Shown one piece after another: positions 39,714 to 57,201 of a DNA stretch of 64,000 nucleotides. Under the pieces are notes generated by a model. It was not told the origin of the DNA and did no database searches. It was given only the letters and a program-made list of their open reading frames with translations. Numbering within the stretch: position 1 is the stretch's first letter; each line of letters starts with the position of its first letter. Source of the stretch: Pseudomonadota bacterium (lineage in GTDB: Bacteria; Pseudomonadota; Alphaproteobacteria; Rhodospirillales; Casp-alpha2); the NCBI GenBank assembly GCA_027624235.1, contig JAQBYB010000005.1:1794-65793 (forward strand). The letters run 5' to 3'. A program made the translations under genes and the position numbers.

Positions 39714-41246
39714 ATGCAGAACATCATTCGACAACTTGAAGAAAAGCGTCAGCGCGCCCGTCTCGGCGGCGGTAAGGAACGGATCGATGCCCAACACGCC
39801 AAGGGCAAACTGACCGCCCGCGAACGTATTGATCTGTTGCTCGACCCCGATTCCTTCGAAGAATGGGATATGTTCGTCGAGCATCGCAGCACCGATTTCG
39901 GTATGGAAAAAAACTCCATTCCAAGTGATGGTGTCGTCACTGGTTTCGGCACCGTCAACGGCCGCCTGATTTTCCTCTATTCTCAGGATTTCACCGTCTT
40001 CGGCGGCTCGCTGTCCGAGGCCCATGCCGAAAAAATCTGCAAGATCATGGACCAGGCGATGAAGGTCGGTGCACCGGTGATCGGCATCAACGATTCCGGC
40101 GGCGCCCGGATTCAGGAAGGGGTGGCGGCCCTGGCCGGGTACGCCGAGGTGTTCCAACGCAACGTCCTGGCATCGGGCGTCATTCCGCAAATTTCCATCA
40201 TCATGGGGCCGTGCGCCGGCGGGGCGGTGTATTCCCCGGCGATTACCGACTTTATTTTCATGGTCGAAGGAACATCTTATATGTTCGTTACCGGACCCGA
40301 TGTGGTCAAGACCGTCACCCATGAGGAAGTTACGCAAGAGCAATTGGGCGGCGCCGTCACCCATACGACCAAATCCGGCGTCGCCGACAAGGCGTTCAAT
40401 GACGATGCCGAGGCGCTGTTGATGCTTCGCCGGTTCATTGATTATCTGCCAGCCAATAATCGGGAACAGCCACCGTCCCGGCCGACCCCGGATCTCGGCG
40501 ACCGGGTTGAGATCGGCCTCGATACCCTCATCCCCGACGACCCGGCGAAGCCCTACGACATGATGGAACTGATCACCAAGGTCGTCGATGAAGGCGATTT
40601 TTTCGAACTGCAACCGGGCTACGCCGGCAATATCATCGTCGGGTTCGGCCGCATGGAGGGCTCGACCGTCGGCATCGTCGCCAATCAGCCGATGGTGCTG
40701 GCCGGTTGCCTGGATATCTCGTCCTCGATCAAGGCGGCCCGGTTCGTGCGGTTCTGCGACTGCTTCAACATTCCCATCGTCACCTTTGTCGATGTGCCAG
40801 GCTTCCTGCCCGGCACCGCCCAGGAATACGGCGGCATCATCAAACATGGGGCGAAACTGCTGTTCGCCTATGCCGAGGCGACGGTGCCCAAGGTCACGGT
40901 GATCACCCGCAAGGCCTATGGCGGGGCCTATGACGTGATGAGTTCAAAACACCTGCGCGGCGACGTTAATTTCGCCTGGCCGTCGGCGGAAATAGCGGTG
41001 ATGGGGCCGAAGGGCGCGGTCGAAATCATCTTTCGCGGCGACATCGGCGATGCGGACAAGATCGCGGCCCGCACCGAGGAATACCGGCAACGCTTCGCCA
41101 ACCCGTTTATCGCCGGCCACCGCGGCTATATCGACGACGTCATCATGCCGCACAACACCCGGGTGCGGATTGCCAAGAGCCTGCGTATGCTGCGCGGCAA
41201 AAAGCTCGATAACCCGTGGAAGAAGCACGGCAATATTCCGCTGTGA
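39714..41246 (+). CDS. pccB: Propionyl-CoA carboxylase beta subunit (carboxyltransferase)
   Basis: ATG at 39714 with a GGGAGGG RBS. 510 aa, [20 protein letters not shown]...[18 protein letters not shown]..., a carboxyltransferase fold throughout. Confidence 0.93.
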
Positions 41247-41738
41247 GCGGGCCATGCGACGGACGGTCACGGAATGCGACGCCAAAATAACGCATACCCA
41301 CTTGAATTTTAAAAGAAAATTATCCAGATAATAACGGATCGCACCGGAAAAATTGTCAGCAATAGTACACATAGGTCTACATTTGTCGTCATTGGCATTT
41401 TTGTTCAGCCCATAGTAAGCATCCGCCAACGAAACGCCGCCCATCCGACGTCATTGTAACAACCTTGATTCTTGCCAGTGGCGCACACCCATACCCACCC
41501 GCCCCTTTGGGCAGGCCGGAAAATTGAGCCGCCGGTTTGCATCCCTAACGCCAGATACCTACCGGCCCATATTCACCGTGTTAAAGAGCAAAAAAAATAA
41601 CAGAACAAATATAGAACATTTTCTGAAAAAAGTCAAGGGGGGGAATATTGGTAGGTCATATTGATGATGTCTTGTGTGGATGGCTCCCGCAAATGACCGG
41701 CCATTTTGTCTAATTTCGTGTTCGGCAAAATTTTAGCC

Positions 41739-41770
41739 TTGATTCAGTACTATGGTACGGGGTTTATGGT
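41739..41770 (+). promoter_or_regulatory. MerR-type promoter/operator upstream of the regulator gene
   Basis: TTGATT (41739-41744), an over-long 19-20-nt spacer carrying the dyad cAGTACtatgGTACgg, then TATGGT (41765-41770). Confidence 0.6.
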
Positions 41771-41785
41771 CTGACGAGGTGCTTC

Positions 41786-42208
41786 ATGGAAATACTGACG
41801 ATAAGCAAGGCAGCCATACAGGCAGGTGTGGGCGTGGAAACGATCCGTTTCTACGAACGCAAGGGATTGATCCGACAACCGCTTAAACCTCAAAATAGTG
41901 GATACCGGAATTATCCAAGCGACACCGTCAAAACAATTCGTTTCATTCGGCAGGCTCAGGAACTTGGTTTTTCTTTACGAGAAATCGAAGAGTTGCTGGC
42001 TCTCAAAGCCGATCCTGCAACCGATTGTGCCGATGTCCGCGAGCGTGCAATTGAGAAATTGGAAGAGGTCGAACGAAAGATTTCTCAATTATATAAAATG
42101 GGCTCAGCCCTCAAATCCGTTATCGCGTCATGTCCTTCTCGCGGGGGTTTAGATGGTTGTTCGATTATGGAGGCGCTGGAAAGCTCCTCTTCCGAGAGTG
42201 AGCGATAG
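41786..42208 (+). CDS. merR: MerR-family metal-responsive regulator, three-Cys MerR/PbrR type
   Basis: 140 aa. The HTH is ...AGVGVETIRFYERKGLI..., and Cys81, Cys116 and Cys125 have the same spacing as C82/C117/C126 of Tn21/Tn501 MerR. Confidence 0.8.
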   Translation: MEILTISKAAIQAGVGVETIRFYERKGLIRQPLKPQNSGYRNYPSDTVKTIRFIRQAQELGFSLREIEELLALKADPATDCADVRERAIEKLEEVERKISQLYKMGSALKSVIASCPSRGGLDGCSIMEALESSSSESER

Positions 42209-42231
42209 CTGGCCATCTAAAGGTTATTTAT

Positions 42232-42276
42232 TAAGCTAAGCTAAGCTAAGCTAAGCTAAGCTAAGCTAAGCTAAGC
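42232..42276. repeat. Pentanucleotide microsatellite (TAAGC)x9
   Basis: Nine perfect tandem TAAGC units, 24 nt after the regulator stop and 72 nt before the next -35 box. Confidence 0.98.
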
Positions 42277-42348
42277 CCGCCTGGAAAGAGCCGGATTAGG
42301 CAATTGCTTCACGCAAACACCGTATCCCGCTTTCTGTAAAATCCCTTA

Positions 42349-42380
42349 TTGACTCCGTACTATACTACGGCATTTAGCAT
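42349..42380 (+). promoter_or_regulatory. mer-operator-like promoter for the HMA-to-ATPase operon
   Basis: TTGACTCCGTACtataCTACGGcatTTAGCAT. The -35 box plus left half-site are identical to the Tn21 merT promoter start (TTGACTCCGTAC, from memory). Spacer is 19-20 nt and the -10 box is TTAGCA/TAGCAT. Confidence 0.65.
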
Positions 42381-42480
42381 GCCTTACATGGTGAGAGCAT
42401 CGATGTATGAGTCCCGCTTGCATCTCAGGAAACAGCTAGGCGTCCCGCCCCTGCTGTTTTTATTGTAACGGAGAATCAAA

Positions 42481-42705
42481 ATGAACACTCTTGATCTAAC
42501 TATTGACGGTATGCACTGTGATGGTTGTGCAACGCGCATCCGCTCCCTGCTCGAAAAGGACAGCGGCATTCGCGAGGTTTCCGTTTCGTTCGAAACAGGA
42601 ATGGGCCGCATCATTTATAGCCCGCAATCAACCGACGAGGAACGGATCGTCGCGATCATCGAACGCGCCAGGTTCACCATTACCAATGGCATAAGCCATG
42701 GTTGA
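42481..42705 (+). CDS. Heavy-metal-associated (HMA) domain protein, cytoplasmic chaperone-like
   Basis: 74 aa, MNTLDLTIDGMHCDGCATRIRSLLEK... (GMxCxxC), with no signal peptide. GGAG RBS lies 7 nt upstream. Confidence 0.88.
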   Translation: MNTLDLTIDGMHCDGCATRIRSLLEKDSGIREVSVSFETGMGRIIYSPQSTDEERIVAIIERARFTITNGISHG

Positions 42706-43372
42706 CGATCAACTTATTAATTTGGTTCTACTCTCCATTGGCCTCGGGCTTTTCGGCTTTGTCGAGCCTTGTTCGGTCGGCTCCAGCCTTTTGTTTATTA
42801 AATTCATCGAAGGCCGCGACCGGGCAGCCAAAATTTCCCAGGTCGTCATTTTCATGATGACGCGAGCTCTGTTCATCGGTGTCATGGGGGCGGGCGCGGC
42901 TTTTATCGGCGCCTTGTTCATCAACCTTCAAAAAGGCGGATGGTTGGTACTAGGAGTGGCCTACATCCTGTTGGGCATATTGTATGTAATCGGCAAGGGC
43001 GGCGTTATTTCCCGGTCCATCGGTATCGGCATGTCACGGATTTCAGGGAAGCAGGGAAGCGCAGTATTGGGTGTCTTTTTCGGCCTCAACATACCGGCTT
43101 GCGCAGCACCTCTTATTTTTGCGCTTCTCGGAGTAACCGCCCTGGGAACCACCCCCAATGTGAGCAACGGGTTTATCTCTCTGTCCTTGTTCGGTTTGGC
43201 TTTGTCGATGCCCTTGTTGGCGGCTTTGCTGTTCGCACCGGTGCGCCGCGCCCTTGATCGCCTCACCGGTCTGTCCGTTCGAATGCCGTTTTGGACCGGC
43301 GTCCTGTTTGTCGCACTCGGCCTGTGGTCGGTGTATTTCGGGCTGTTTGTAAATTTGGAGGATTGGACTTGA
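42698..43372 (+). CDS. CcdA/DsbD_2-like six-TM membrane protein with two intramembrane Cys
   Basis: 224 aa and about 6 TM helices, with Cys in VEPCSVGS (TM1) and NIPACAAPL (TM4) as in cytochrome c biogenesis/UreH-like transmembrane families. Its start overlaps the HMA gene by 8 nt. Confidence 0.65.
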   Translation: MVDDQLINLVLLSIGLGLFGFVEPCSVGSSLLFIKFIEGRDRAAKISQVVIFMMTRALFIGVMGAGAAFIGALFINLQKGGWLVLGVAYILLGILYVIGKGGVISRSIGIGMSRISGKQGSAVLGVFFGLNIPACAAPLIFALLGVTALGTTPNVSNGFISLSLFGLALSMPLLAALLFAPVRRALDRLTGLSVRMPFWTGVLFVALGLWSVYFGLFVNLEDWT

Positions 43373-44811
43373 AAAGAGCGCTCTCTGTCACTGCGTTGGC
43401 GGTATCCCTGTGGACCTCGTCTGCCGTGGCCGACGACAAAGGGTTTCACTACGACGAAAATAGCGTCGGGCCCGCCACCTATTACGCTGCGATTTCCAAC
43501 CTCGCCAACGCCGTCATGTTCTCGGGGTTGGGTGAAGAGTTGATTGTGTCGCCCTATGAACGGGACGACTGGCTGCGCCGAGCGGGATACGTCACCCGCC
43601 CGCCGATGCCCGATATGGGGATTGTCGGCCCGGTTTACGCGTCGTCCGAACCGGCGTTTGAGAAGGCCCCTGATTTTTCCAAACCGGAGACCCTGCGTTG
43701 GAAGACTGACGGCGTCGATCGCACACTCGATCCCGGTGCTCAGGCATGGACGTTACTAAAAATCACCAGTCCTCAGTTCCATCTTCAATTTCACGACCTG
43801 CCGGAAAACAAGATTGCTGCGTTGATGATGGTTCCGCAGGCCCGTGTTCAGGCCAGCGTTCTTGTTGATCGCCTTCGTAATGATGATGGCGTATTCGCGC
43901 CCCGGTCGCCGGATGGAAAGTTTCTTAGCGCCACCCCTCGTGATCAGGCGGCGGTGCTGTGGGCGGCATCCAGTTTAATCCATGCCGGGAGCAGCTCACG
44001 AGATGACTACTGGCATAAGGCTTATGGTGATCTCACCAAGGCCGATAAATACCGCCCCCTTGCCGATCACGCTTTTGCCGCCCTCGACAAACTGCCGCCG
44101 CGCAGACCGGCTGAACGCGCCATCGCCATCGAAGCGCTTGGCCTCTACGCGTTGGCTTTGCGCGATGACGCCAAGCGCCGTCAAGCCATCGAGCGAGCGC
44201 GCACACACGCTAATGTATTGAAAAAGGAAACGCTGAGCGCGCTCGAAGATATCGCACTCGGTATCTATGGCCTTGTCGAAGCGGGCCGCTTGCTGGGCGA
44301 CAAAAGCTATGCCGACGCTGCCGCTGAACGGTTCCGGTCTACCTTGATGCCGCTATGGAATGACACCGCCGGTGTTTTCCTGTCGTCGAACGGCAAAGGC
44401 ATCTACACGCCGAACACGGTAGGCGCCGTCGTCGCCGCGCTGAACGCCCTCCGCTGGTACGGCCCGGACGATCTGGCCGGTGAGGCGGCCCGCCTCTACC
44501 CCAGGTTCTTCGAGAACGCGATCATCCGTTCCGGCCTGTTGCGTGCTAGTCCATTGGCCTTGGTTTCCAAGAATTACCGCGATGCTCAACCGGCCGCTTA
44601 TTTCGCCCATCCCCTACTGCCCGACTCGAAGGACACCGGCACCGCACCCGTGTTCGCCGCCATGGTCGTCTACGAAGGCGGAACGTGGTCGGTAGCTGAA
44701 ACCGCCTTCGAGACCAGCGCCGCCATGTTCCTGTCCAACATGTTGGCCTTGAAAAGCGATGGCCGAGCCGACCCCTTCCTGCCCGACGACTTGTTGTCGG
44801 CGATCCGTTAA
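43369..44811 (+). CDS. Secreted protein of unknown function (cysteine-free, helix-rich)
   Basis: TTG start at 43369 forms a TTGA overlap with the upstream stop, with GGAGG 7 nt upstream. The signal peptide is KRALSVTALAVSLWTSSAVA/DD. 480 aa with no recognisable catalytic or metal motif. Confidence 0.7.
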   Translation: MKRALSVTALAVSLWTSSAVADDKGFHYDENSVGPATYYAAISNLANAVMFSGLGEELIVSPYERDDWLRRAGYVTRPPMPDMGIVGPVYASSEPAFEKAPDFSKPETLRWKTDGVDRTLDPGAQAWTLLKITSPQFHLQFHDLPENKIAALMMVPQARVQASVLVDRLRNDDGVFAPRSPDGKFLSATPRDQAAVLWAASSLIHAGSSSRDDYWHKAYGDLTKADKYRPLADHAFAALDKLPPRRPAERAIAIEALGLYALALRDDAKRRQAIERARTHANVLKKETLSALEDIALGIYGLVEAGRLLGDKSYADAAAERFRSTLMPLWNDTAGVFLSSNGKGIYTPNTVGAVVAALNALRWYGPDDLAGEAARLYPRFFENAIIRSGLLRASPLALVSKNYRDAQPAAYFAHPLLPDSKDTGTAPVFAAMVVYEGGTWSVAETAFETSAAMFLSNMLALKSDGRADPFLPDDLLSAIR

Positions 44812-44820
44812 AGGAAAAAA

Positions 44821-47352
44821 ATGATGACTTCTACCTCCACTATGGCGGCTTCTGCGGATCGGGGTCTCGCGACCCTGCAACTGAAGATCGGCGGCATGAG
44901 CTGCTCATTCTGCGCCAACTCCATCGAGAAAGCCTTGTTCAAGGAAAAGGGTGTCGATGAGGTCCACGTCTCGCTCGCCCACGAGGAAACCCTGGTCCGC
45001 TATTACGCCGACAAGACGTCTCCCTCTGCGATCAAGGACACCATGCGGGCGTTGGGTTTCATCATTCGTGACCCCAACAAAGTAAAAGCTTTTGAGGAAC
45101 AGCAGAAGGCGGCACGGGAAGAACGCCACGACCTGATGACATCGGCGACTTGCGCCATAACATTGTTTGTCGCCATGTCGGCGATGTGGCTGGACCTGTG
45201 GCGGATGCAGAACTGGCACGTTTGGAGTGCGTGGGGGATATCGACGTTTGTTTTCCTGTGGAACGGTCGCCGTATTATCCGCATGGCCTGGGGTGCGGCA
45301 TGGCGCGGCATCACCAACCAGCATGTTCTGCTGAGCATCGGCGCTATCGGTGCCTATATCGGTGGTGTGTTAGGGAGTCCAATACCGTTTTTGGATTGGT
45401 ACGGTTTTGTCGGTTTCCCTGCTGTCGACTTCTTCGGCGTCGTGGTGTTCCTCACCACGTACCACCTGTTGTCGGGCTACATTTCGATGCTCGTTCGGAC
45501 CAAGGCATCCGAAAGCGTCCGTAAACTTCTCGACATGCAACCGGCAACGGCGCGCGTCGTTCGCGACGGCGTGGAAGAGGAAGTCGATATCGAAGTCGTT
45601 CTGGTCGGTGACCATGTCCGTATCCGCCCCGGCGAGAAGGTTCCTGTCGATGGCCGGGTGCTGGAAGGTCATAGCGCCATCGACGAATCTCTTGTCACAG
45701 GCGAACCCATTCCTTTAGATAAAAATGCTGGCACAGAAGTGATCGGCGGCAGCACCAACCAGACTGGCACTCTGCTGGTTGAGGTAACCCGGATTGGCGA
45801 GGACAGTTTCCTGCGCCAGGTCGCCCGCCATGTTGAGGAAGCCAAGGCGATGAAGCCCGGCATCATCGTTCTCGTTGACCGGGTGCTCAAACATTACGTT
45901 CCGGCGGTCCTCACCATCTCTCTGGCGGCCCTTCTCTTCTGGGGCTTCACCCCGGACGCCTGGACGGCGGAGCCCCACTGGGTGCGAGCCATCTACGCCG
46001 CCGTAACGGTCCTGGTGATGGGCTATCCGTGTGCACTCGGCATGGCGACACCGCTGGCGTTAATACGAGGCGGCGGTATGGCGGCCGAGCGTGGAATCCT
46101 GATCCGTTCGGGCGAGGCGTTCCAAACTCTCAAGGATGTCACCCACGTCGTCCTCGATAAAACCGGCACCATCACCGAAGGAAAACCGAGTGTCACCGAG
46201 ATTGATAGCCTGGGCGCACTCAGCCGAGACGAGGTTTTGCGTTTTGTCGCATCGGTGGAGGCGCCGTCCGAGCATCCCTTGGGCCGCGCCATCGTTGCCG
46301 CCGCAGAAGACGAAGGGCTGAGCCTGGCCTCGTGTGAAGGTTTTCAGGCCGTCACCGGCGCCGGGGTCGAGGCCACGGTGGACGGTAGAAAGGTTGTCGC
46401 CGGCACCCATCGTTTTTTGACCTCGCACGGCATCGACAGCCAAGCAGCGACGGCGTTGCTGACGCGCCATGAGAAAAACGCACACACCGCCATCCTTGTT
46501 GCCGTCAATGGTCAAGTAGCGGGTATCGTCGCCATCACCGATGCCATCAAGGCGGATGCGGCAGAAAGCATTGTTGAGATGAAGGCACGCGGGCTCGTTC
46601 CCTTGTTGGTTACCGGTGACAATCGCCACACGGCTGAAGCCGTAGCCCGGCAAGTGGGAATCGATGACGTTCGCGCGGAAGTATTGCCCCAGGAGAAGGC
46701 GGCGATTGTCCGTGACCTCCAGGCCGAAGGCGGTCGCGTCGCAATGGTAGGAGACGGCATCAACGACGCTCCGGCGCTGATGCAGGCCGACGTTGGCATA
46801 GCCATCGGTGCGGGAACCGACATCGCCATTGAAAGTTCGGACGTTATCATTGTCGGCAACCGGGTCGGCGCCATTCTGGACGCCCGCGACATCGGTGCCG
46901 CGAGTTACAGTAAGACGGTACAGAACCTCTGGCTGGCATTCTTCTTCAACGGTGTCGGTGTGCCGTTGGCGACGACGGGCCTGGTCCATCCTTCCTGGGC
47001 GATGATCGCCATGGCCGCCAGTGTGAGCGCCGTGCTCGCCAACTCCTTCGGTGGGCGGCTGCTTGTCTCCAAAGCGAACATTACCGATGGGATTGAAACA
47101 CCGAAGCTGATTGCTGACAAGAAACTGGTCTTTTCGGTGCCCGGCATTCACTGTGCCGGGTGCGTTAACACCATCAGCATGTACCTGAAGACCAATCCCG
47201 GGGTTGATTCGGTTGAGGGAGACGCGAAAGAAAAAACCGTAAAGGTCTCTTTTCAATCGGACACAGTAACCATTGAACGGCTACAAGAAATGTTCCAGGA
47301 AATCGGCTTTGATGCCAGCGATCCCACAACTCCGTCTTCTCCGCCGCACTAA
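44821..47352 (+). CDS. Heavy-metal translocating P1B-type ATPase with N- and C-terminal HMA domains
   Basis: 843 aa. It contains GMSCSFC (N-terminal HMA), TGEP, DKTGT, SEHPL, GDGINDAP and GIHCAGC (C-terminal HMA). The TM6 motif reads YPC instead of CPC. Confidence 0.93.
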   Translation: MMTSTSTMAASADRGLATLQLKIGGMSCSFCANSIEKALFKEKGVDEVHVSLAHEETLVRYYADKTSPSAIKDTMRALGFIIRDPNKVKAFEEQQKAAREERHDLMTSATCAITLFVAMSAMWLDLWRMQNWHVWSAWGISTFVFLWNGRRIIRMAWGAAWRGITNQHVLLSIGAIGAYIGGVLGSPIPFLDWYGFVGFPAVDFFGVVVFLTTYHLLSGYISMLVRTKASESVRKLLDMQPATARVVRDGVEEEVDIEVVLVGDHVRIRPGEKVPVDGRVLEGHSAIDESLVTGEPIPLDKNAGTEVIGGSTNQTGTLLVEVTRIGEDSFLRQVARHVEEAKAMKPGIIVLVDRVLKHYVPAVLTISLAALLFWGFTPDAWTAEPHWVRAIYAAVTVLVMGYPCALGMATPLALIRGGGMAAERGILIRSGEAFQTLKDVTHVVLDKTGTITEGKPSVTEIDSLGALSRDEVLRFVASVEAPSEHPLGRAIVAAAEDEGLSLASCEGFQAVTGAGVEATVDGRKVVAGTHRFLTSHGIDSQAATALLTRHEKNAHTAILVAVNGQVAGIVAITDAIKADAAESIVEMKARGLVPLLVTGDNRHTAEAVARQVGIDDVRAEVLPQEKAAIVRDLQAEGGRVAMVGDGINDAPALMQADVGIAIGAGTDIAIESSDVIIVGNRVGAILDARDIGAASYSKTVQNLWLAFFFNGVGVPLATTGLVHPSWAMIAMAASVSAVLANSFGGRLLVSKANITDGIETPKLIADKKLVFSVPGIHCAGCVNTISMYLKTNPGVDSVEGDAKEKTVKVSFQSDTVTIERLQEMFQEIGFDASDPTTPSSPPH

Positions 47353-47468
47353 ACCCTCGACGATAACTTTGCTTCATCCGCGGACACGCCATCTTTGCGT
47401 TTAAGATAAAGAGTTGCGTCGATCAGTTGAGACTACCCCCCGAAAGCGGACCATTTTTAGGGAGACGC
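47316..47468 (-). mobile_element. IS30-family element remnant (left end plus the first ~20 codons of the transposase)
   Basis: The minus-strand reading MKQSYRRGFSAAEKTELWDRW (47377 down to ~47316) matches, from memory, the N-terminal HTH region of IS30-family transposases. Homology then breaks off inside the ATPase 3' end. The upstream ~100 bp is repeated at 48762-48877. Confidence 0.55.
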
Positions 47469-47520
47469 AATACTGCTGCTTTATTCCACATCGCTAAAGC
47501 CGGTAAGCCAGTTCCAATCC

Positions 47521-48216
47521 TTATTTTAAGGGTTTCTGGAAGAGTGCGACGATATCCTTATACCCTCTTTGTTTTGCATGGGCCAACGGGGTAACTCCTT
47601 GGCGATCGGAAATGGTGACGTCGGCACCGGCTTTGATCAAGGCACGGGCTGTGTTGACGTGCCGCGGTCCGCCATCGCCCAAGACAACCGCTTCAATAAG
47701 GGCTGTCCAACCCAGATTATTGATGTGATTAAGAGGCGCCCCGGCTTTTATTAACGTTCTGACTATATCGAAATGGCCAAGATGCGCTGCTGCAATCAAA
47801 GCCGTTCCGTCATAAGGGCTGGTAATATTCCTGGGATTTCCTCCAAGAGAAATTGCCAATCGCATCATCTCCACATCATTGGCGACAGCGGCAATGGTGA
47901 TCACATCATAGGAGTCATTCTCAAAAGCATTCATATCTGCACCGGCCTTGGCCAATGCTTCGACGGCTTCCTCATGAGATTTGAAAGCGGCGACATGAAG
48001 CGGCGTTCGCCCGGCTCGGTCACGGGCTTCGACTTTGGCTCCTTGGACAATTAACCGGCGGATCTGGTCTGCATCTCCCTTGGATGCAGCCGCATGCAAG
48101 TCTGAATACGCTGATTCTTCAATTTGAGACGGAGCTGTTTGAGCCAAAATACTGCCAGGGATCATCAGCAAATAAGCCAAGAACAACCCAACCCTGCATA
48201 CTCGCCGTGCATTCAT
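47521..48216 (-). CDS. Ankyrin-repeat protein with signal peptide
   Basis: 231 aa. The N-terminus is MNARRVCRVGLFLAYLLMIPGSILAQ, followed by several ANK units (GRTPLHVAA..., DGTALIAAAHLGH..., GWTALIEAV..., GVTPLAHAKQRGY). Confidence 0.88.
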   Translation of the reverse strand: MNARRVCRVGLFLAYLLMIPGSILAQTAPSQIEESAYSDLHAAASKGDADQIRRLIVQGAKVEARDRAGRTPLHVAAFKSHEEAVEALAKAGADMNAFENDSYDVITIAAVANDVEMMRLAISLGGNPRNITSPYDGTALIAAAHLGHFDIVRTLIKAGAPLNHINNLGWTALIEAVVLGDGGPRHVNTARALIKAGADVTISDRQGVTPLAHAKQRGYKDIVALFQKPLK

Positions 48217-48334
48217 GTCCTTCTCCCCGTCCTATCACCGTCAGTTCTACGCCTCTATCGCCAGAGTCATAGACGCGCTGCTAGCCCTCCCAGGGGGGGG
48301 AATCGAACCATTTTTTTTGATCTTTGGCTTGCAC

Positions 48335-48685
48335 TCAAGACCCTAAAAGTTGGACTGGCGGGCCAGCAGCCGCCTCGGCTATGTTTCCACAAGTTGTTTC
48401 CAATTGATCGAGAATTCCGTCAACCATATCCAGGGTCGTTCCAAAAACAAAATCCCTAGGTGCCAATTTTACCGTCGGTCCCTTGTGGCAATGACCAAAG
48501 CATAGGACACGTTCAACTTCAATATCGATGCGTCGCGCAAGGACGCCCGATTCAATTGCCTCGGCGATAGCGACGCTGCCACGAGCCGCACAAGAGGGCT
48601 CATCACCTTGAAAACGCCGGTTCACACAGATCAGAATTTGTGTAGGCCCATTTCCCAAACGCATCTCCACTTTGCGGACTAACAA
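48335..48685 (-). CDS. Thioredoxin-like [2Fe-2S] ferredoxin domain protein
   Basis: 116 aa. The four-Cys pattern ILICVN...PSCAARG...VLCFGHCHKGPTV is typical of (2Fe-2S) ferredoxin-domain proteins. The start may instead be the internal Met at 48664. Confidence 0.65.
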   Translation of the reverse strand: MLVRKVEMRLGNGPTQILICVNRRFQGDEPSCAARGSVAIAEAIESGVLARRIDIEVERVLCFGHCHKGPTVKLAPRDFVFGTTLDMVDGILDQLETTCGNIAEAAAGPPVQLLGS

Positions 48686-48761
48686 TTGCGGGTTTTAATT
48701 ATGTTGTTTGCAGGCCAATGAATTTCAATGAATGTCCGCATTGGGTTGCCACCTCACCCAA

Positions 48762-48877
48762 CGATATAGCTGCTTCATCTGCAGACACCCCATCTTTGCG
48801 GTAAAGATAAAGAGTTGCGTCGAACAGTTGAGACCACCCTCCCATAACGGACATTCTCTGGGTTACGAGGACATACT
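48762..48877. repeat. Second copy of the IS30-like end sequence (direct repeat of 47361-47478)
   Basis: At a constant offset of 1401 bp, 69 of 80 ungapped positions (47371-47450 vs 48772-48851) are identical by manual count. Similarity decays on both sides. Confidence 0.8.
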
Positions 48878-49054
48878 TTAACCACGGTTTCCCAGTGGTC
48901 ATCGTCACCGTGACGGTGGTTCATTTGTCCTGGTGAAAAAGACGGAAAAGGTGCGTCTAGTTGTGATGTCTCAACAGGTTGTTCACATCCTAGCCTGACC
49001 GGCTGTTTCGGGGGTTTTTCGGATCGGTCTTTTCGGCACTGCCTGCGCCCGGCT

Positions 49055-50440
49055 TCAAATCAAATGCCGGATGGCGATGATGATGCCGGCGATCACCGCG
49101 CCATTGAGAAAGGCCGTCGGCGCCATCCAGCGCCAGCCGATGATATGGGCGGGGACGCCGGTGACGCGCGACATGTACAGGGTCGTCCCGGAAAACGGCG
49201 AGACCATCGTGCTCAAGCCCCACACCCCGACATAGGTCAGGCCCATCACCCAGTCCCTCATGCCGATGGCTTCGGGCGGAAGAATGGAGCTCAACGCAAT
49301 CACGACGATGACCGCGTGCAGACCGATCATGCTGGTGATCAGGAAAAACAGGATAATGGCGATGACCTTAGCATCGGTCCACGGCAACACCGCGTTGACC
49401 AGGGCGGCCACATCCTGAGACGGGATGGCGCTGGAAAGGCCGACGCCGAGGATGTTGGCGGCGACAAAAACCAGCACCTCGTTGCGAAGGGTCGGCAGCC
49501 CCTTCATGACCTCATAAGTCAAGCTTTTGGCGCGATGCGGAAATCTGGTGCCTTTGGCCCCGAAGGACATATACCAAAATATCGCAAACGGCGGCCCCAT
49601 CAGACCAAGGGTTACGGGAATGGAGGTTCCGGTGATGTCAACAACCGCAATGGTCAGACCGACAAGCGATCCCAACAGGGCCGCTGTTCGCCAAAAATGC
49701 TGTCTTGAAATGGCGACCGGGCTGGAAGCCGCCTCGGACGGCATCGCCGCGCGCAGAACCAATCGGTCATAGAGCCAGCCTATGGTTATGATGGTGAGCG
49801 CGAGAATTATCCCCAACGGCCCGATATCGCGCCATGACAGGGTCGGGATGGCGACCAGAACAACGATCATGCCGATAAAAAACGGCGACCAGCATGACGC
49901 ACTGCCGAACCCGTTGATGAGGGCCATGGTCATCCGCCGGCGCAGGTGAGGGTCCTTTTGGCCCTCGACCATGGTCGATAGCAAACCAAGTCCGGCCAGA
50001 TTCAGCACCGAGCCTAAAACATGAACCCCGAAGGACATATACATAAAACGCCGTCCGGGTGGCTGACTAACGATGGTTTCTCGCGCCGCCTGCATGGAAG
50101 GGCTTTGCTTGACCGGTAATTGCAGCCAGGAAACCGCGAAGAACAACAGCAGGAAAATCCTGGACCGCGCAATGCCATCGATGACCACACCGGCCCAATG
50201 ATCGGATGCCGCCGCCCCGATCAGGCCGATGAGGGTTAAGACGAGGCCGGCTATTTTTTGCGGAAACGGGATTTGCCTAAATTGAAGAACGATGAAAAGA
50301 ACAATCAATCCGGCCGTGACCGGCACCAATTGGGGCAGGTGAACAAAGGCGTCGATCAGGGCGAGTACGGCGACCGCAAGGTACACCCAAGCTGAAATCC
50401 CGATGCGGTGTTGAGGCAAATCGTTGTCCAGTTGGTACAA
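49055..50440 (-). CDS. Polytopic membrane protein, unassigned family (permease-like)
   Basis: 461 aa with a TTG start and at least 11 hydrophobic segments. It is a long uninterrupted ORF with membrane-protein composition, and I recognise no diagnostic motif. Confidence 0.6.
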   Translation of the reverse strand: MYQLDNDLPQHRIGISAWVYLAVAVLALIDAFVHLPQLVPVTAGLIVLFIVLQFRQIPFPQKIAGLVLTLIGLIGAAASDHWAGVVIDGIARSRIFLLLFFAVSWLQLPVKQSPSMQAARETIVSQPPGRRFMYMSFGVHVLGSVLNLAGLGLLSTMVEGQKDPHLRRRMTMALINGFGSASCWSPFFIGMIVVLVAIPTLSWRDIGPLGIILALTIITIGWLYDRLVLRAAMPSEAASSPVAISRQHFWRTAALLGSLVGLTIAVVDITGTSIPVTLGLMGPPFAIFWYMSFGAKGTRFPHRAKSLTYEVMKGLPTLRNEVLVFVAANILGVGLSSAIPSQDVAALVNAVLPWTDAKVIAIILFFLITSMIGLHAVIVVIALSSILPPEAIGMRDWVMGLTYVGVWGLSTMVSPFSGTTLYMSRVTGVPAHIIGWRWMAPTAFLNGAVIAGIIIAIRHLI

Positions 50441-50546
50441 TGGTGGCTTGAAAGCAGCTTGTTACAACATGTATCTAGCTGCCGCTAAAAATGACTTTCT
50501 ACTATTCCGTTCCGGCGCGGTATAATGAATTTGAGGATCAAAGGTA

Positions 50547-51056
50547 TTGACAGTTGAGAGGAGCCGCAAGGCGCGTTTACAAAAAGCCATGGCAAATGAA
50601 AAAGACATCAACCGCAATTTTGCGCCGTCGACGGTAGAAGCGCCGAGCCGGGCGTCTAAAGAGGCGGTTTCTTCAACGAAACGTTCGCCGTCTCGGGGGA
50701 TGCCCAAGGTTAGGGTCAACCCCAAGATAGCGATGGAATTCGAAAACGAACTGGTCGAAAAATTATCGTCCGGACGAAAGCGTATGTTTTGGTTCGCAAA
50801 TCACTTCATCTTATTTGTCATTGGCGTTGCCGTTGCCATCGCGCTTAAACTTTCTATTTTTGCGAAATTGGAAAACGAATTTTTTCTGGTAGGCCTTGGC
50901 GCCTGGGTCGGGATTTTGGCGATCCACGCCCGCTATGCCCTGGCCCCGATTTTCAGGCGATCCGAAAAAGAAAGCCAATTGAAGGCTATTATTCCCGATG
51001 CCTCGGGTTCGAAAACAGGAAAACCTGATAACCGTGACCAAAGGCGTGGGCGATAA
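50547..51056 (+). CDS. 2TM-domain membrane protein with a basic/Ser-rich N-terminal region
   Basis: 169 aa from the TTG at 50547 (an alternative ATG lies at 50589). Two hydrophobic helices, FWFANHFILFVIGVAVAIAL and LVGLGAWVGILAIHARYAL, fit the 2TM pattern. Confidence 0.6.
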   Translation: MTVERSRKARLQKAMANEKDINRNFAPSTVEAPSRASKEAVSSTKRSPSRGMPKVRVNPKIAMEFENELVEKLSSGRKRMFWFANHFILFVIGVAVAIALKLSIFAKLENEFFLVGLGAWVGILAIHARYALAPIFRRSEKESQLKAIIPDASGSKTGKPDNRDQRRGR

Positions 51057-51273
51057 TGCCGGGGAAGATCAGGCGGGTCGCCGATTGAAGGGACTTGGCC
51101 TTCATTTGGCGATTTATTTCGGGGTGATGGTGTTGGCGGTGCCGTTGAATTTATATTTATTACCGGAAAACCCCTTATTCCTTTTGCCGATGATTGGCTG
51201 GGGCGCGGTGTTGGCGCTGCATGTGGCATATGTTATGGGATTATTCCGGGGGCTTTTCGGTCCATCCGGCTAA
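50998..51273 (+). CDS. 2TM-domain membrane protein (second, tandem copy)
   Basis: ...RRLKGLGLHLAIYFGVMVLAVPLNLYLL...LPMIGWGAVLALHVAYVMGLF. The start is uncertain: the ATG at 50998 overlaps the upstream gene by 59 nt, and a GTG at 51046 is an alternative. Confidence 0.55.
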   Translation: MPRVRKQENLITVTKGVGDNAGEDQAGRRLKGLGLHLAIYFGVMVLAVPLNLYLLPENPLFLLPMIGWGAVLALHVAYVMGLFRGLFGPSG

Positions 51274-51288
51274 GGGGCGCCAGGGCGC

Positions 51289-53274
51289 ATGTTCAAGAAA
51301 ATTCTAATCGCCAACCGGGGTGAAATCGCCTGCCGGATCATGCGCACCGCCAGGGAAATGGGGATCAAGACCGTTGCGGTTTGCTCCGAGGCCGATACCA
51401 GGGCCTTGCATGTGGAAATGGCCGACGAAACCGTTATGATCGGCCCGCCGGTGGCTGCGGAAAGTTATCTGAACGTCGCCAATATCATGAACGCGATTAA
51501 GCAAACCAGGGCCGACGCGGTTCATCCCGGATACGGCTTTCTTTCGGAAAATGCCTCTTTCGCCAAGGCCTTGAAAAAAGCCGGGATCGCCTTCATCGGT
51601 CCAGGGCCGAAGGCGATCACCGTCATGGGTGATAAGATCGAGTCCAAAAAAGTCGCGATCAAGGCCGGCATCAATACGGTTCCGGGCGACGGCGGGGCGC
51701 TTTCAAGCGCGGACGAAGCGGTCAAGGTTGCCAGAAAAATCGGTTATCCGGTGATGCTGAAGGCATCCGCCGGCGGCGGCGGAAAGGGGATGCGGATCGC
51801 GCGAAATGACGCCGAATGCCGCGACGGCCTAAAACGCGCCAGCAGCGAGGCCGAAACCGCATTCGGTGATGGCCGGGTGTTTGTCGAAAAATACATCGAA
51901 CATCCCCGCCATATTGAAATTCAAATATTGGCCGATTCGGCCGGCAACACCGTTTACCTGGGCGAACGTGAATGTTCGATCCAACGCCGCCATCAAAAAG
52001 TCATCGAGGAAGCGCCGTCGCCTTTCCTGGATTCCGATACCCGCCGAGCCATGGGAACCCAAGCCGTCGCCCTGGCCAAAGCGGTGGGATATACATCCGC
52101 CGGCACCGTCGAATTTATCGTCGATCAAGACAAAAACTTTTATTTCCTTGAGATGAACACGCGGCTTCAGGTCGAGCACCCGGTGACTGAAAAAATCACC
52201 GGGCTTGATCTGGTGGAATGGATGATCCGCATTGCCGCCGGCGAATCGTTGACGTTCGGCCAGGATGACGTACAGCTCAATGGGTGGGCCATGGAAGCGC
52301 GTGTTTACGCCGAAAACCCGTTGCGCAATTTCATGCCGTCGACGGGACGGCTGACGGCATACCGCCCGCCGCTGGAAGATGAGAGCCTGCGCGTTGATAC
52401 CGGGGTGTGCGAAGGCGGCGAGATTTCCATTTTTTACGATCCGATGATCGCCAAGGTTATTTCCTATGGCGCCACCCGCGAGCTGGCCAGGGCCCGCATG
52501 TCCGTTGCCCTCGACGAATTCCACATTAGGGGCGTCCAACACAATATCGGCTTTCTGGCGGCGTTGATGGGCCATCCCCGCTTCGCCGAAGGACGCCTGA
52601 GCACTGATTTTATCGCCGAGGAATACCCGGATGGTTTTCATGCGCAGGACCTAATGCCGGATGATCCAAAACTGCTAATTTGTGTCGCCGCCTGTGTGCA
52701 TCGGGCCTATCAGGAGCGCGCCTCGATGATCTCAGGCCAGATTCAAGGCCGCCAACGGGTTGTCGCCGATGATTGGGTCGTCTTGATGCATGGCGGAAAA
52801 TACGACGTGTCCGTCACCCTCAGGGACGGCGGCTACGACCTTTCCCTGAAATCCGGGTCGGTGGCGATACAGTCCGACTGGAAAATCGGCGAAGCCCTAT
52901 TTCAAGGCGACATCGAAGGCCGGCGGTTTTGCATTCAGGTCGAACGGGTCGGAATCGCCTACCGCCTGACCCACGCAGGCGCGGAAGCCGATGCCTTGGT
53001 GATGAACGCCAGGACCGCCGAGTTGCAGGCGCTGATGCCGGTCAAGGTGGCCCCGGATACGTCCAAGTTCCTGTTGTCGCCGATGCCGGGGTTGCTGGTA
53101 TCGCTGTCCGTCGGCCCCGGCCAGGAGGTCAAGTTCGGCGAAGAACTGGCCGTCGTCGAGGCGATGAAGATGGAAAATGTCCTGCGCGCCGAACAGGACG
53201 GGGTGGTTGCCGCCGTCAGGGCGAAAGCCGGCGAAAGTCTGACGGTCGATCAGGTCATCCTGGAATTCGAATAG
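51289..53274 (+). CDS. pccA: Propionyl-CoA carboxylase alpha subunit (biotin carboxylase plus BCCP domain)
   Basis: 661 aa, MFKKILIANRGEIACRIMRTAREMGI... It has an ATP-grasp GGGGKGMRIA and the C-terminal biotinylation motif VVEAMKMEN. Confidence 0.93.
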   Translation: MFKKILIANRGEIACRIMRTAREMGIKTVAVCSEADTRALHVEMADETVMIGPPVAAESYLNVANIMNAIKQTRADAVHPGYGFLSENASFAKALKKAGIAFIGPGPKAITVMGDKIESKKVAIKAGINTVPGDGGALSSADEAVKVARKIGYPVMLKASAGGGGKGMRIARNDAECRDGLKRASSEAETAFGDGRVFVEKYIEHPRHIEIQILADSAGNTVYLGERECSIQRRHQKVIEEAPSPFLDSDTRRAMGTQAVALAKAVGYTSAGTVEFIVDQDKNFYFLEMNTRLQVEHPVTEKITGLDLVEWMIRIAAGESLTFGQDDVQLNGWAMEARVYAENPLRNFMPSTGRLTAYRPPLEDESLRVDTGVCEGGEISIFYDPMIAKVISYGATRELARARMSVALDEFHIRGVQHNIGFLAALMGHPRFAEGRLSTDFIAEEYPDGFHAQDLMPDDPKLLICVAACVHRAYQERASMISGQIQGRQRVVADDWVVLMHGGKYDVSVTLRDGGYDLSLKSGSVAIQSDWKIGEALFQGDIEGRRFCIQVERVGIAYRLTHAGAEADALVMNARTAELQALMPVKVAPDTSKFLLSPMPGLLVSLSVGPGQEVKFGEELAVVEAMKMENVLRAEQDGVVAAVRAKAGESLTVDQVILEFE

Positions 53275-56817: not shown

Positions 56818-57201
56818 ATGACTGATAGCTTTGGCATTGCCGAACTGGCCCGGGAATTCGACGTTACCACCCGGACCATTCGTTTCTATGAGGATAAGGG
56901 CCTGCTGACGCCTGTCCGTAAGGGCCAACGCCGGGTCTATATGCCCCGCGACCGGGTCCGCCTGAAACTGATCATGCGCGGCAAGCGGCTGGGGTTTTCG
57001 TTGGACGAAATCCGCGCCATGATCGACCTCTACGATGTTGACCCAACGGAGGTAACGCAGCTTCGCCACTTCATTGATAAGATTCTTGAACGCAAGGCGG
57101 CCCTGGAACGTCAACAGGCCGATATTGCCGAAACCTTGGCGGAAATCAGCCGTATCGAGGCCCAGTGTTCGTCGCTGTTGAAGGAAAAGCAGAAAAAATG
57201 A
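56818..57201 (+). CDS. liuR: MerR-family regulator of branched-chain acyl-CoA catabolism (LiuR-like)
   Basis: 127 aa, ...IAELAREFDVTTRTIRFYEDKGLL..., with no metal-binding Cys. It sits next to ivd and has ACGT-palindrome boxes. Confidence 0.75.
   Translation: MTDSFGIAELAREFDVTTRTIRFYEDKGLLTPVRKGQRRVYMPRDRVRLKLIMRGKRLGFSLDEIRAMIDLYDVDPTEVTQLRHFIDKILERKAALERQQADIAETLAEISRIEAQCSSLLKEKQKK

Follow-up and report, generated by a model that had tools for sequence, protein, structure and literature searches.

A predicted MerR-regulated P1B efflux module of marine Proteobacteria, frequently found beside mercury resistance operons

Mercury resistance is taught as an exception among metal resistances, Hg(II) being imported into the cell and then reduced by MerA. 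Here, we describe a five-gene module that might deal with this metal in another way. It occupies positions 41739 to 47352 of a 64,000-nucleotide stretch of DNA from a member of the Alphaproteobacteria (Rhodospirillales, Casp-alpha2; assembly GCA_027624235.1, contig JAQBYB010000005.1, positions 1,794 to 65,793), the whole of which is hereafter designated as the window. The five open reading frames (ORFs) are intact and co-directional, and encode a MerR-type regulator (MerRx), a small HMA-domain protein, a 224-residue membrane protein (TM224), an exported 480-residue protein (P480) and a P1B-type ATPase. Together, they are predicted to form a MerR-regulated P1B efflux operon. Whether this module is a Hg(II)-inducible system that exports Hg(II) by a chaperone-to-pump route, independently of any reductase, is a question to which we give an even chance of a positive answer.

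Database searches located P480 homologues at 22 loci among the species representatives of GTDB, exclusively in marine or saline Alpha- and Gammaproteobacteria, and at least 22 species have the module conserved as a unit. Wherever a locus was of sufficient length, the P480 gene was followed by a pump with the same Tyr-Pro-Cys (YPC) motif as that of the window, and in most of them it was preceded by TM224 and by a MerRx orthologue (58-78% identity). Exceptions were L011, with only a DsbD-type protein upstream, and L017, with a divergent CueR-like regulator. A merR-merT-merP-(merF)-merA operon was located directly upstream or within a few kilobases (kb) in 12 of the 16 loci having at least 5 kb of upstream sequence. 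The identity of these mer genes was confirmed by NCBIfam (MerA TIGR02053, 543 bits for a cut-off of 454; MerF, 109 for 50). Their MerA products (476 amino acids, aa) are devoid of an N-terminal HMA domain, and the operons are often followed by a glutathione-reductase-like gene corresponding to the MerK of PMC11227200. A preliminary description of this DNA, made from the sequence alone, had suggested mining gene neighbourhoods for co-occurrence; this confirmed the association of the module genes in the 22 GTDB loci, mostly beside merR-merTP(F)A, and went beyond that description in revealing the adjacency to complete mer operons in most relatives, the YPC subfamily of pumps and the optional character of P480.

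Stand-alone copies were also found, namely in the window, in a Leisingera plasmid, in Litchfieldella, in Arhodomonas and in a metagenome-assembled genome (MAG) of the Hyphomicrobiales; the closest relative of the window copy (L004) has merTPFA upstream of the module. Synteny with L004, L005, L006 and L010 was limited to the module, with no shared flanks. For all five genes, comparison with L004 and L005 gave ratios of nonsynonymous to synonymous substitution rates (dN/dS) of 0.03-0.36, with synonymous sites near saturation; all five are thus subject to purifying selection.

As stated in the preliminary description, the 64 kb contain no reductase and no Hg(II) importer. BLASTP analyses of all window ORFs with queries from a related locus identified no MerA, MerT, MerP, MerF or MerK, the only similarity being that of HMA domains. 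No MerA-like or other pyridine-nucleotide disulfide reductase ORF was detected in the 64 kb at E<=1e-5, and no MerT/MerP/MerC/MerF-type importer beyond generic HMA similarity; the contig upstream of the window contains only core genes. With the mer operon of Tn21/Tn501 (merR-merTP(C/F)A(D)), the module shares a MerR-type regulator with three Hg-ligand cysteines, a TCCGTAC-N4-GTACGGA dyad in an over-long spacer, an HMA-fold Hg-binding protein and, in relatives, frequent physical adjacency. It differs in having no mercuric reductase, MerT, MerP, MerC or MerF, in a regulatory gene that is co-directional with the cargo rather than divergent, in spacers of 20 instead of 19 base pairs (bp), and in a cargo made of a P1B ATPase, a CcdA-fold protein and an (α/α)6 periplasmic protein. 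By its gene content, the module is not a mer operon as defined by MerA and MerT/P.

The MerRx regulator and its operators

The merRx gene (41786..42208, + strand) encodes a 140-aa protein matching the Pfam models MerR, MerR_1 and MerR-DNA-bind. Its best match of solved structure is Tn501 MerR (5crl, 91 bits), and the alignment superimposes Cys81, Cys116 and Cys125 on C82, C117 and C126, in agreement with the preliminary description, according to which their spacings equal those of the Hg(II)-ligand cysteines of MerR. By comparison, matches to solved structures gave only 45-56 bits for CadR, PbrR and ZntR. MerRx also carries a cysteine at the position where monovalent-metal sensors have a serine. 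NCBIfam models ranked MerR first (TIGR02051, 130.5 bits), followed by CueR (114.8, a margin of 15.7), ZntR (105) and CadR/PbrR (87.8), all scores being below the cut-offs of the respective models, including the TIGR02051 equivalog cut-off of 150.85. Failure to reach this threshold was considered as possible evidence against a MerR identity. The MerRs divergent from true merTPFA operons in L001 and L004, used as a control, scored 132.2 and 116.7 on TIGR02051, also under the cut-off and with no margin over CueR. Since bona fide alphaproteobacterial MerRs located beside a true MerA fail likewise, the cut-off is not decisive here and the argument was dropped.

Phylogenetic placement, suggested earlier as a check, pointed in the same direction. 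In a neighbour-joining tree built without bootstrap and with four reference sequences entered by hand rather than retrieved from a database, the MerRx clade was sister to Tn501 MerR, within accepted MerRs and apart from CueR, ZntR, CadR and PbrR. The identity of MerRx with Tn501 MerR (41%) is higher than the 37-38% that Tn501 MerR displays with other accepted MerRs. Among MerRx orthologues, Cys116 and Cys125 are invariant and Cys81 is found in most. It is replaced by an alanine in L003, L018, L021, L023 and Marinobacter salarius, and all of these except L021 have gained a cysteine adjacent to Cys125, which suggests selection for a three-thiolate site. The dN/dS ratio of merRx was 0.03.

Two promoters were identified by direct sequence reading and by their match to the merO consensus. 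P1 (41739..41770, + strand), upstream of merRx, has a -35 box TTGATT (41739-44), a 7-4-7 dyad TCAGTAC-TATG-GTACGGG and a -10 box TATGGT. P2 (42349..42380, + strand), upstream of the cargo operon, has a -35 box TTGACT (42349-54), a dyad TCCGTAC-TATA-CTACGGC and a -10 box TAGCAT. The preliminary description had reported GTAC-type dyads in spacers of 19-20 bp; the dyads were confirmed, but both spacers measure 20 bp. The consensus published for proteobacterial merO sites is TCCGTAC-N4-GTACGGA, the spacer being 19 bp long; "mixed" cases are known in which this dyad occurs in 20-bp spacers (PMC1526738). When up to 2 mismatches were allowed, this consensus had exactly 2 matches in the 64 kb, P1 and P2, for 0.14 expected. 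The sequence TTGAC-TCCGTAC-N4-GTACGGA with a 20-bp spacer was found at orthologous positions of related loci. A site orthologous to P1 precedes merRx in nearly all of them, and in those having a regulator-HMA fusion the second operator is instead located upstream of the 480-aa gene. A standard sigma-70 scan (16-18-bp spacers) detected neither P1 nor P2, as expected of MerR promoters.

In the canonical merR/merT intergenic regions of relatives (L001 1110-1200, L004 2660-2780 and others), the operator is TCTGTAG-N4-CTACAGA, whereas the MerRx circuit, a few kb away, uses the textbook TCCGTAC-N4-GTACGGA. With such different operators, the second one in a 20-bp spacer, the canonical and MerRx circuits look insulated from each other. 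MerRx is predicted to bind the 7-4-7 merO-type dyads found in both over-long promoters, one driving merRx and the other the cargo. To judge from these sequences, the regulator and its operators truly constitute a mer-type sensor pair.

The surroundings of these promoters have several peculiarities. The non-coding stretch upstream of merRx is unusually long (540 bp, 41247-41785), and a strong sigma-70-like site (10/12 matches) is found on its minus strand, at 41636-41608. No Rfam family reached its gathering score anywhere in the window (1-64000), in spite of its rpoBC operon and its S10/spc/alpha operons of ribosomal proteins, in which leader RNAs are frequent, and the 540-bp region thus contains no known RNA element. 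The stop codon of merRx is separated from P2 by a microsatellite made of nine perfect copies of the pentanucleotide TAAGC (42232-42276); shifts in copy number would change the distance from merRx to P2.

The pump and the YPC subfamily

The last gene of the module (44821..47352, + strand) encodes an 843-aa P1B-type ATPase composed of E1-E2 and HAD domains, with DKTGT at residue 446. As previously described, it has an HMA domain at each end (Pfam; residues 20-80, with GMSCSFC, and 770-831, with GIHCAGC); the occurrence of YPC in place of CPC was not part of that description. NCBIfam analyses favoured TIGR01511 (465 bits, above the cut-off of 397) over TIGR01512 (374 bits), and the best relative of solved structure is Archaeoglobus fulgidus CopA (3j09, 444 bits). 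The signature of P1B-1 pumps consists of M158, C380-P-C382, Y682-N683 and M711-x-x-S714-S715 (PMC9433437). Where Cu(I) pumps thus have M / CPC / YN / MxxSS, the module pump has NQH167-168 / Y400-P-C402 / FN / MAASV: C382, N683, M711 and S714 are kept, while M158 is replaced by Q (Q167), C380 by Y, Y682 by F and S715 by V. The pump is also devoid of the Lys of transmembrane helix (TM) 5 and the Asp of TM6 that characterize Zn/Cd/Pb pumps, residues which, together with CPC, occupy the same alignment columns in a P1B-2-like pump of locus L024. Judged by these residues, it conforms to neither the P1B-1 nor the P1B-2 signature. The combination NQH / YPC / FN / MxxSV is invariant in 17 module orthologues.

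The resemblance to known efflux systems is one of general design. Like CueR-CopZ-CopA Cu(I) efflux, the module combines a MerR-family activator, a cytosolic HMA chaperone and a P1B pump, and A. fulgidus CopA also has metal-binding domains at both ends; it departs from this system by the cysteine of MerRx at the mono/divalent discriminator, by merO operators instead of a CueR box, and by a pump with NQH / YPC / FN / MxxSV instead of M158 / CPC / YN / MxxSS. With ZntR-ZntA and CadR-CadA, it shares the logic of a thiophilic divalent metal and a MerR-family sensor with three cysteines, and P1B-2 pumps of the ZntA/CadA type illustrate that Hg2+ can be moved by a P1B pump in vitro (PMC10246665). In contrast to these systems, its pump has neither CPC nor the TM5 Lys and TM6 Asp, and its regulator and operators fall outside the ZntR/CadR groups.

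A metagenome scan for the coding pattern GYPC[AS]LGMATP revealed at least 120 loci. In more than 100 metagenomic relatives, NQ[HD] / YPC / [FLIV]N / MxxS[VLIT] was near-universal, with F and V predominating. Among the metagenomic loci listed, MerR-family regulators adjoining YPC pumps almost always had the cysteine marking divalent-metal sensors, and a TM224- or DsbD-type gene occurred in about one quarter. MerT, MerF or MerA was present in some 16 of the 120, short contigs notwithstanding. P480 was limited to a clade of at least 64% identity and was missing even there from L055, L098 and L121.

On annotated plasmids, YPC pumps are merely designated as cation-translocating P-type ATPases. Several lie at most 7 kb from merA, merT or merP: those of Haloarcula marismortui pNG600 and Natrinema pNVE500, both about 2 kb from merA, and those of Afipia carboxidovorans pOC167, Nitrobacter hamburgensis plasmid 2 and M. 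salarius pSMR5. In Afipia, the pump lies between a merRTPA set and a cluster with the organization HMA-pump-MFS-MerR-thioredoxin-CcdA-merT-merP (MFS, major facilitator superfamily), which is also found in Nitrobacter. Cupriavidus has a pump-HMA-MerR-thioredoxin-CcdA-MFS arrangement adjoining cop genes, and also a mer transposon resembling Tn501. The merT gene of M. salarius pSMR5 is transcribed divergently from a MerRx-HMA fusion gene; GTAC-type operators occupy the space between the two, and an extra operator precedes the pump, right behind a TM224 orthologue. Between the MerRx-HMA and TM224-pump genes of this plasmid (L155 1354-6013) are genes for a cytochrome d1-domain protein, an extracytoplasmic function (ECF) sigma/anti-sigma pair, a sulfite oxidase and a cytochrome c, and periplasmic redox proteins thus occupy the position held by P480 in the window.

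Based on these distributions, the YPC signature defines a large and widespread mer-associated P1B subfamily, extending from Proteobacteria to haloarchaea. This subfamily is an unrecognised P1B subclass. Full-text literature searches found no description of the module, nor of YPC pumps as mercury-linked, in line with the earlier remark that this gene combination could not be named. The sole mention of YPC in the literature searched concerns CopAL6, the only tested pump reported with both YPC and terminal HMA domains (PMC11082258).

Partner proteins and genomic setting

The first cargo gene (42481..42705, + strand), preceded by a GGAG ribosome-binding site, encodes a 74-aa protein with an HMA domain (Pfam, 51.8 bits). 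Its GMHCDGC motif starts at residue 10, which leaves no space for a signal peptide and designates it as a cytosolic metallochaperone, consistent with the preliminary description. Depending on the locus, this domain is free or fused to the C-terminus of MerRx, with MerR-HMA fusions in L001, L012-14, L022, L024 and M. salarius pSMR5.

TM224 (42698..43372, + strand) had been described as a six-TM CcdA/DsbD_2-like protein with two cysteines, and our analyses point to the same fold. No Pfam or NCBIfam model matched it (E<=0.01), and its profile had no sequence match in the PDB (E<=10), although at least 1800 homologues were found, some labelled CcdA by their sources. Comparison by hhalign with PF02683-type proteins of related loci gave a probability of 91%, and the top Foldseek match was the CcdA of Thermus thermophilus (5vkv; TM-score 0.51, 24% identity), from a model with a predicted local distance difference test (pLDDT) score of 68.6. 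The motifs EPC25 and N-x-PAC135-AAP are invariant. TM224 is therefore best viewed as a CcdA-like six-TM protein on the basis of this model, with one Pro-associated cysteine in TM1 and one in TM4. CcdA/DsbD proteins (PF02683) likewise have six TMs, a Pro-preceded cysteine in TM1 and a cysteine in TM4; TM224 differs in having no family match, no thioredoxin-like periplasmic partner in the window, and a genetic link to a metal pump instead of cytochrome c maturation. No thioredoxin-like gene is present in the module. A role as canonical CcdA is disfavoured, because there is no thiol partner and because the related DsbD-type protein lacks the TM1 cysteine. This PF02683 "DsbD_TM" protein accompanies many modules (L001 11036-11758, L004 8361-9101 and others), with the TM1 cysteine replaced (APSS) and CPAC in TM4, or CPIC in the Nitrobacter and Afipia versions. 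The loss of the TM1 cysteine precludes the disulfide cascade typical of CcdA, and this protein looks more like a membrane metal-binding site.

P480 (43369..44811, + strand) starts at a TTG codon (43369), as in the deposited 480-aa MAG protein. It has a Sec signal with an AVA/DD cleavage site, no cysteine and no Pfam or NCBIfam match, which agrees with the unassignable exported protein reported earlier. Its 127 close homologues are all annotated as hypothetical, and a profile search of 1.84 billion representative proteins retrieved only 226 clusters. The AlphaFold2 (AF2) model (pLDDT 91.1, predicted TM-score 0.92) is an (α/α)6 barrel, and the 14 PDB matches obtained with Foldseek at E<=0.001 were all (α/α)6 proteins (TM-score 0.31-0.51, 9-15% identity), including AGE epimerases, GH9, GH76 and the thioredoxin-fused 7tkv. 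According to this model, P480 is a divergent (α/α)6 barrel. It shares its predicted fold with six-hairpin proteins such as AGE epimerases, GH9/GH76 enzymes and the thioredoxin-fused Bab1_2064 (7tkv), but differs from them in having no sequence-family membership, no catalytic residues recognisable in its sequence, and a periplasmic location within a metal operon. Invariant residues of P480 include M50, M154, M458, H216, D66, D102, D117 and E304. In the wider family, only G53, G55, P95, W111, L197, W440 and F447 are conserved, with almost no invariant polar residue. Assignment as a glycoside hydrolase or epimerase was dropped, since there is no conserved catalytic set and the similarity is at fold level only.

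Some distant relatives of P480 are fused to cupredoxin or cytochrome c, and some are encoded beside thioredoxin and peroxiredoxin genes. These fusions, together with the thioredoxin and cytochrome genes of variant clusters, are a hint of periplasmic thiol or redox chemistry. The dN/dS ratio of the P480 gene was about 0.11. Only 1 of 72,556 PLSDB plasmids carries P480, which implies that the Sinorhizobium mer plasmids of PMC11227200 are not carriers. Its distribution suggests that P480 is an optional accessory of one marine clade rather than a universal member of these clusters.

The compactness of the operon is consistent with a common function. The HMA and TM224 genes share an 8-nucleotide overlap, ATGGTTGA, at 42698-42705 (checked in the sequence), and the TM224 and P480 genes overlap by TTGA at 43369-43372, with a GGAGGA Shine-Dalgarno (SD) sequence in front; both overlaps had already been noticed. 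Nine nucleotides separate the P480 gene from that of the pump, the start of which is preceded by AAGGA. These overlaps and the 9-nucleotide gap within one operon argue that the HMA, TM224, P480 and pump proteins act together. No convincing terminator was found by a scan after the pump gene. By analogy, the lead-resistance operon pbr of Cupriavidus metallidurans (PbrR, PbrA, PbrB/C, PbrD) also joins a P1B exporter (PbrA) to a three-Cys sensor of the MerR family (PbrR) and to a metal-binding protein of the cytosol, with helpers (PbrB/C) that are not transporters and act on the periplasmic side; its helpers are not homologous, with the PbrB phosphatase facing the (α/α)6 barrel of P480, and MerRx shares only 26% identity (45 bits) with PbrR.

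In the window, the module lies within a 10-kb stretch (41247-51288) bordered by pccB immediately upstream (39714-41246) and pccA 4 kb downstream (51289-53274), in which no integrase or transposase was seen. The minus strand of the same stretch encodes a secreted ankyrin-repeat protein (47521-48216), a Cys-rich ORF of 116 aa and a 461-aa membrane protein without family match. The remaining window is made of housekeeping genes, including rpoBC and ribosomal-protein operons, AsmA, MgtE, acyl-CoA dehydrogenase and thiolase. A second MerR-family gene (56818-57201), located among aspartate dehydrogenase, acyl-CoA dehydrogenase and thiolase genes, encodes a protein without metal-binding cysteines, in all probability a metabolic regulator of the LiuR type that has no connection with the module.

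Several copies in other genomes have features of their own. By their appearance, those of a Hwanghaeella isolate and MAG (L024, L025 9983-13145) are decaying, with P480 in three ORFs and the pump in several, as is that of Leisingera aquimarina (L015 11403-13895), in which the pump is split in two and TM224 truncated. In Litchfieldella qijiaojingensis (L003 8480-15219), the operon runs past the pump into overlapping LPG_synthase_TM, MFS transporter and gamma-glutamylcyclotransferase-like genes. A further MerRx-type operator at 13898 of this locus precedes genes for a MerP-like HMA protein with a signal peptide (GLACPFC) and a Phenol_MetA_deg outer-membrane channel; these extra genes are, as far as the operator predicts, added members of the regulon facing the periplasm and the outer membrane. 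A DUF3179 gene adjoins the module in Litchfieldella (L003 4706-5752) and a distant cupredoxin-fused P480 homologue (L026 3790-4734, L027 2631-3575), the latter in an unrelated and probably archaeal context with thioredoxin and peroxiredoxin genes. DUF3179 may be a recurrent partner.

A possible route of Hg(II) export, its alternatives and its implications

In the mechanism that we propose, binding of Hg(II) to MerRx would realign P1 and P2 by the classical DNA-distortion mechanism of MerR. The 74-aa HMA protein would take up cytosolic Hg(II) as a bis-thiolate and hand it over to the N- and C-terminal HMA domains of the pump, which would then move it from the cytoplasm to the periplasm by way of a single-thiolate site formed by Y-P-C402, Asn and Met. 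A single thiolate would avoid the over-stable linear Hg(Cys)2 complex and make release possible. P1B pumps transport Hg2+ in vitro, and a departure from linear coordination by two sulfurs was argued to permit its release and turnover (PMC10246665), an argument that the single-thiolate site fits. TM224, with its two membrane-embedded cysteines, and the periplasmic P480 might operate on the exit side, the former perhaps as a thiol relay or repair conduit and the latter as a periplasmic acceptor or processing protein. In carriers of merTPFA, the module would represent a second, separately wired line of defence, while in the window it would stand alone.

Several points weigh against Hg(II)-induced export. 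The inducer, the substrate and the direction of transport have all been inferred from sequence. To our knowledge, efflux is not an accepted mechanism of mercury resistance, and exported Hg(II) would remain in the periplasm. Islands that already encode a Hg-sensing MerR carry MerRx as a second, seemingly redundant regulator, which could then sense something else. Adjacency on integrative or plasmid islands can reflect the co-carriage of unrelated metal systems. Only 9 of the 120 metagenomic YPC loci listed have a GTAC-type operator, and the wider subfamily may thus not all be under Hg control. P480 has no cysteine and no ligand set conserved across its superfamily, so that a role in Hg binding is unsupported. 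Finally, CopAL6, a possible member of the YPC pump subfamily, lowered the Cu resistance of an E. coli ΔcopA strain and raised its Cu accumulation, an import-like phenotype (PMC11082258).

Some of these points would be accommodated if the module sensed and exported a thiophilic metal other than Hg (Cd, Pb, Zn or Cu/Ag/Au) and lay near mer operons merely because resistance cargo is clustered on mobile islands. We regard this possibility as unlikely. It would account for the apparent redundancy of a second Hg sensor beside a canonical MerR and for the cop genes adjoining the YPC pump of Cupriavidus; three-Cys sites also occur in PbrR and CadR, the pump is nearest to Cu(I) pumps by hidden Markov models (TIGR01511, 465 bits, against 374 for TIGR01512), and the CopAL6 phenotype concerned Cu. 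However, MerRx is remote from CadR, PbrR and ZntR in NCBIfam scores (87.8-105 vs 130.5 bits), matches to solved structures (45-56 vs 91 bits) and the tree, and has a cysteine at the serine position of monovalent sensors; the operators have the sequence of merO and not that of CueR, ZntR or CadR operators. In the pump, 4 of the 8 Cu(I) signature residues are gone, as are the TM5 Lys and TM6 Asp of Zn/Cd/Pb pumps, and the association with mer is repeated in bacteria and haloarchaea on unrelated island backbones. The preliminary description had envisaged a thiophilic-metal relay and transport system responding to Hg or to Pb/Cd; its relay-and-transport part still holds, but the case for Pb/Cd is weakened by the distance of MerRx from PbrR/CadR and by the missing Lys and Asp.

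The direction of transport might also be reversed. In an uptake scenario, the pump, possibly with TM224 as a relay, would act as an ATP-driven accessory importer comparable to MerC, MerE or MerF, and supply cytosolic HMA proteins with Hg(II), to be reduced by a MerA whose gene is adjacent, as in relatives, or located elsewhere in the genome to which the window belongs. This would make sense of modules abutting merTP(F)A in 12 of 16 loci, since several redundant importers are common in mer operons, and the free HMA protein could stand in for the N-terminal HMA domain that is missing from the neighbouring 476-aa MerA. The accumulation and sensitivity conferred in E. coli by CopAL6, with YPC and HMA domains at both ends, is also in its favour. 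Yet all P1B ATPases defined structurally or biochemically take their ion from the cytoplasm and export it (PMC9433437), the metal-binding domains and the chaperone are all cytosolic as in exporters, and the periplasmic partner has no thiols. Import would moreover be harmful in the stand-alone copies without merA within 10-40 kb (window, Leisingera plasmid, Litchfieldella, Arhodomonas), and the chances of this scenario are low.

A similarly low probability was assigned to a function in periplasmic thiol or redox protection. TM224, and the DsbD-type protein of relatives, would then send reducing power outward, and P480 would be the periplasmic effector, with a role either in the repair or processing of targets damaged by Hg or in an extracytoplasmic reduction of Hg(II), the pump being secondary. 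CcdA-fold proteins do accompany about one quarter of the YPC pumps in the metagenomic loci listed, thioredoxin-family genes are part of the Nitrobacter, Afipia and Cupriavidus versions, and redox domains or proteins are found fused to distant P480 relatives (cupredoxin, cytochrome c), near them (thioredoxin, peroxiredoxin) and at the P480 position in M. salarius. This is countered by the composition of P480, which has no cysteine and no conserved catalytic or ligand set, by the loss from the DsbD-type partner of the TM1 cysteine required for the CcdA disulfide cascade, and by an invariant core that consists of the pump and the regulator, not of P480.

Decay of a mer island after the loss of merA and merTP, as contemplated in the preliminary description, could explain the absence of merA, merT and merP from the window when the closest relative (L004) has merTPFA upstream, and broken P480 or pump copies do exist in Hwanghaeella (L024, L025) and Leisingera aquimarina (L015), but a non-functional remnant is very improbable in view of the five intact ORFs with SD sites and coupled starts, the dN/dS ratios of 0.03-0.36, the retention of both operators, the independent stand-alone copies in four other lineages and the conservation of the unit in at least 22 species.

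Returning to Hg(II)-induced export, we advance a broader proposal more tentatively, at somewhat less than an even chance: YPC P1B ATPases might be dedicated mercury pumps that, with a MerR-proper sensor, an HMA chaperone, a CcdA-fold thiol protein and, in one marine clade, a six-hairpin protein, provide MerA-independent detoxification by efflux in bacteria and haloarchaea. If true, this would overturn the textbook view of Hg as the sole toxic metal that cells take up and reduce instead of expelling it, and the efflux might be linked to a processing of the metal in the periplasm. Should the pump move Hg(II), a second, ATP-driven route would exist that is uncounted by merA-based surveys of environmental mercury cycling. 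The new P1B subclass, with its NQH / YPC / FN / MxxSV signature, offers a directly testable single-thiolate site, and culturable carriers exist, namely M. salarius SMR5 (pSMR5), Leisingera aquaemixtae (CP081057), Litchfieldella qijiaojingensis KCTC 22228, Thalassospira profundimaris WP0211 and Stappia albiluteola F7233. TM224, sometimes annotated as CcdA, and P480 add two partner families for which there is no Pfam-A or NCBIfam model, while the MerR variant and its operator, which coexist with the canonical MerR circuit in apparent insulation, could serve biosensor design. At the level of the organisms, the module would point to an undescribed form of mercury handling in marine bacteria.

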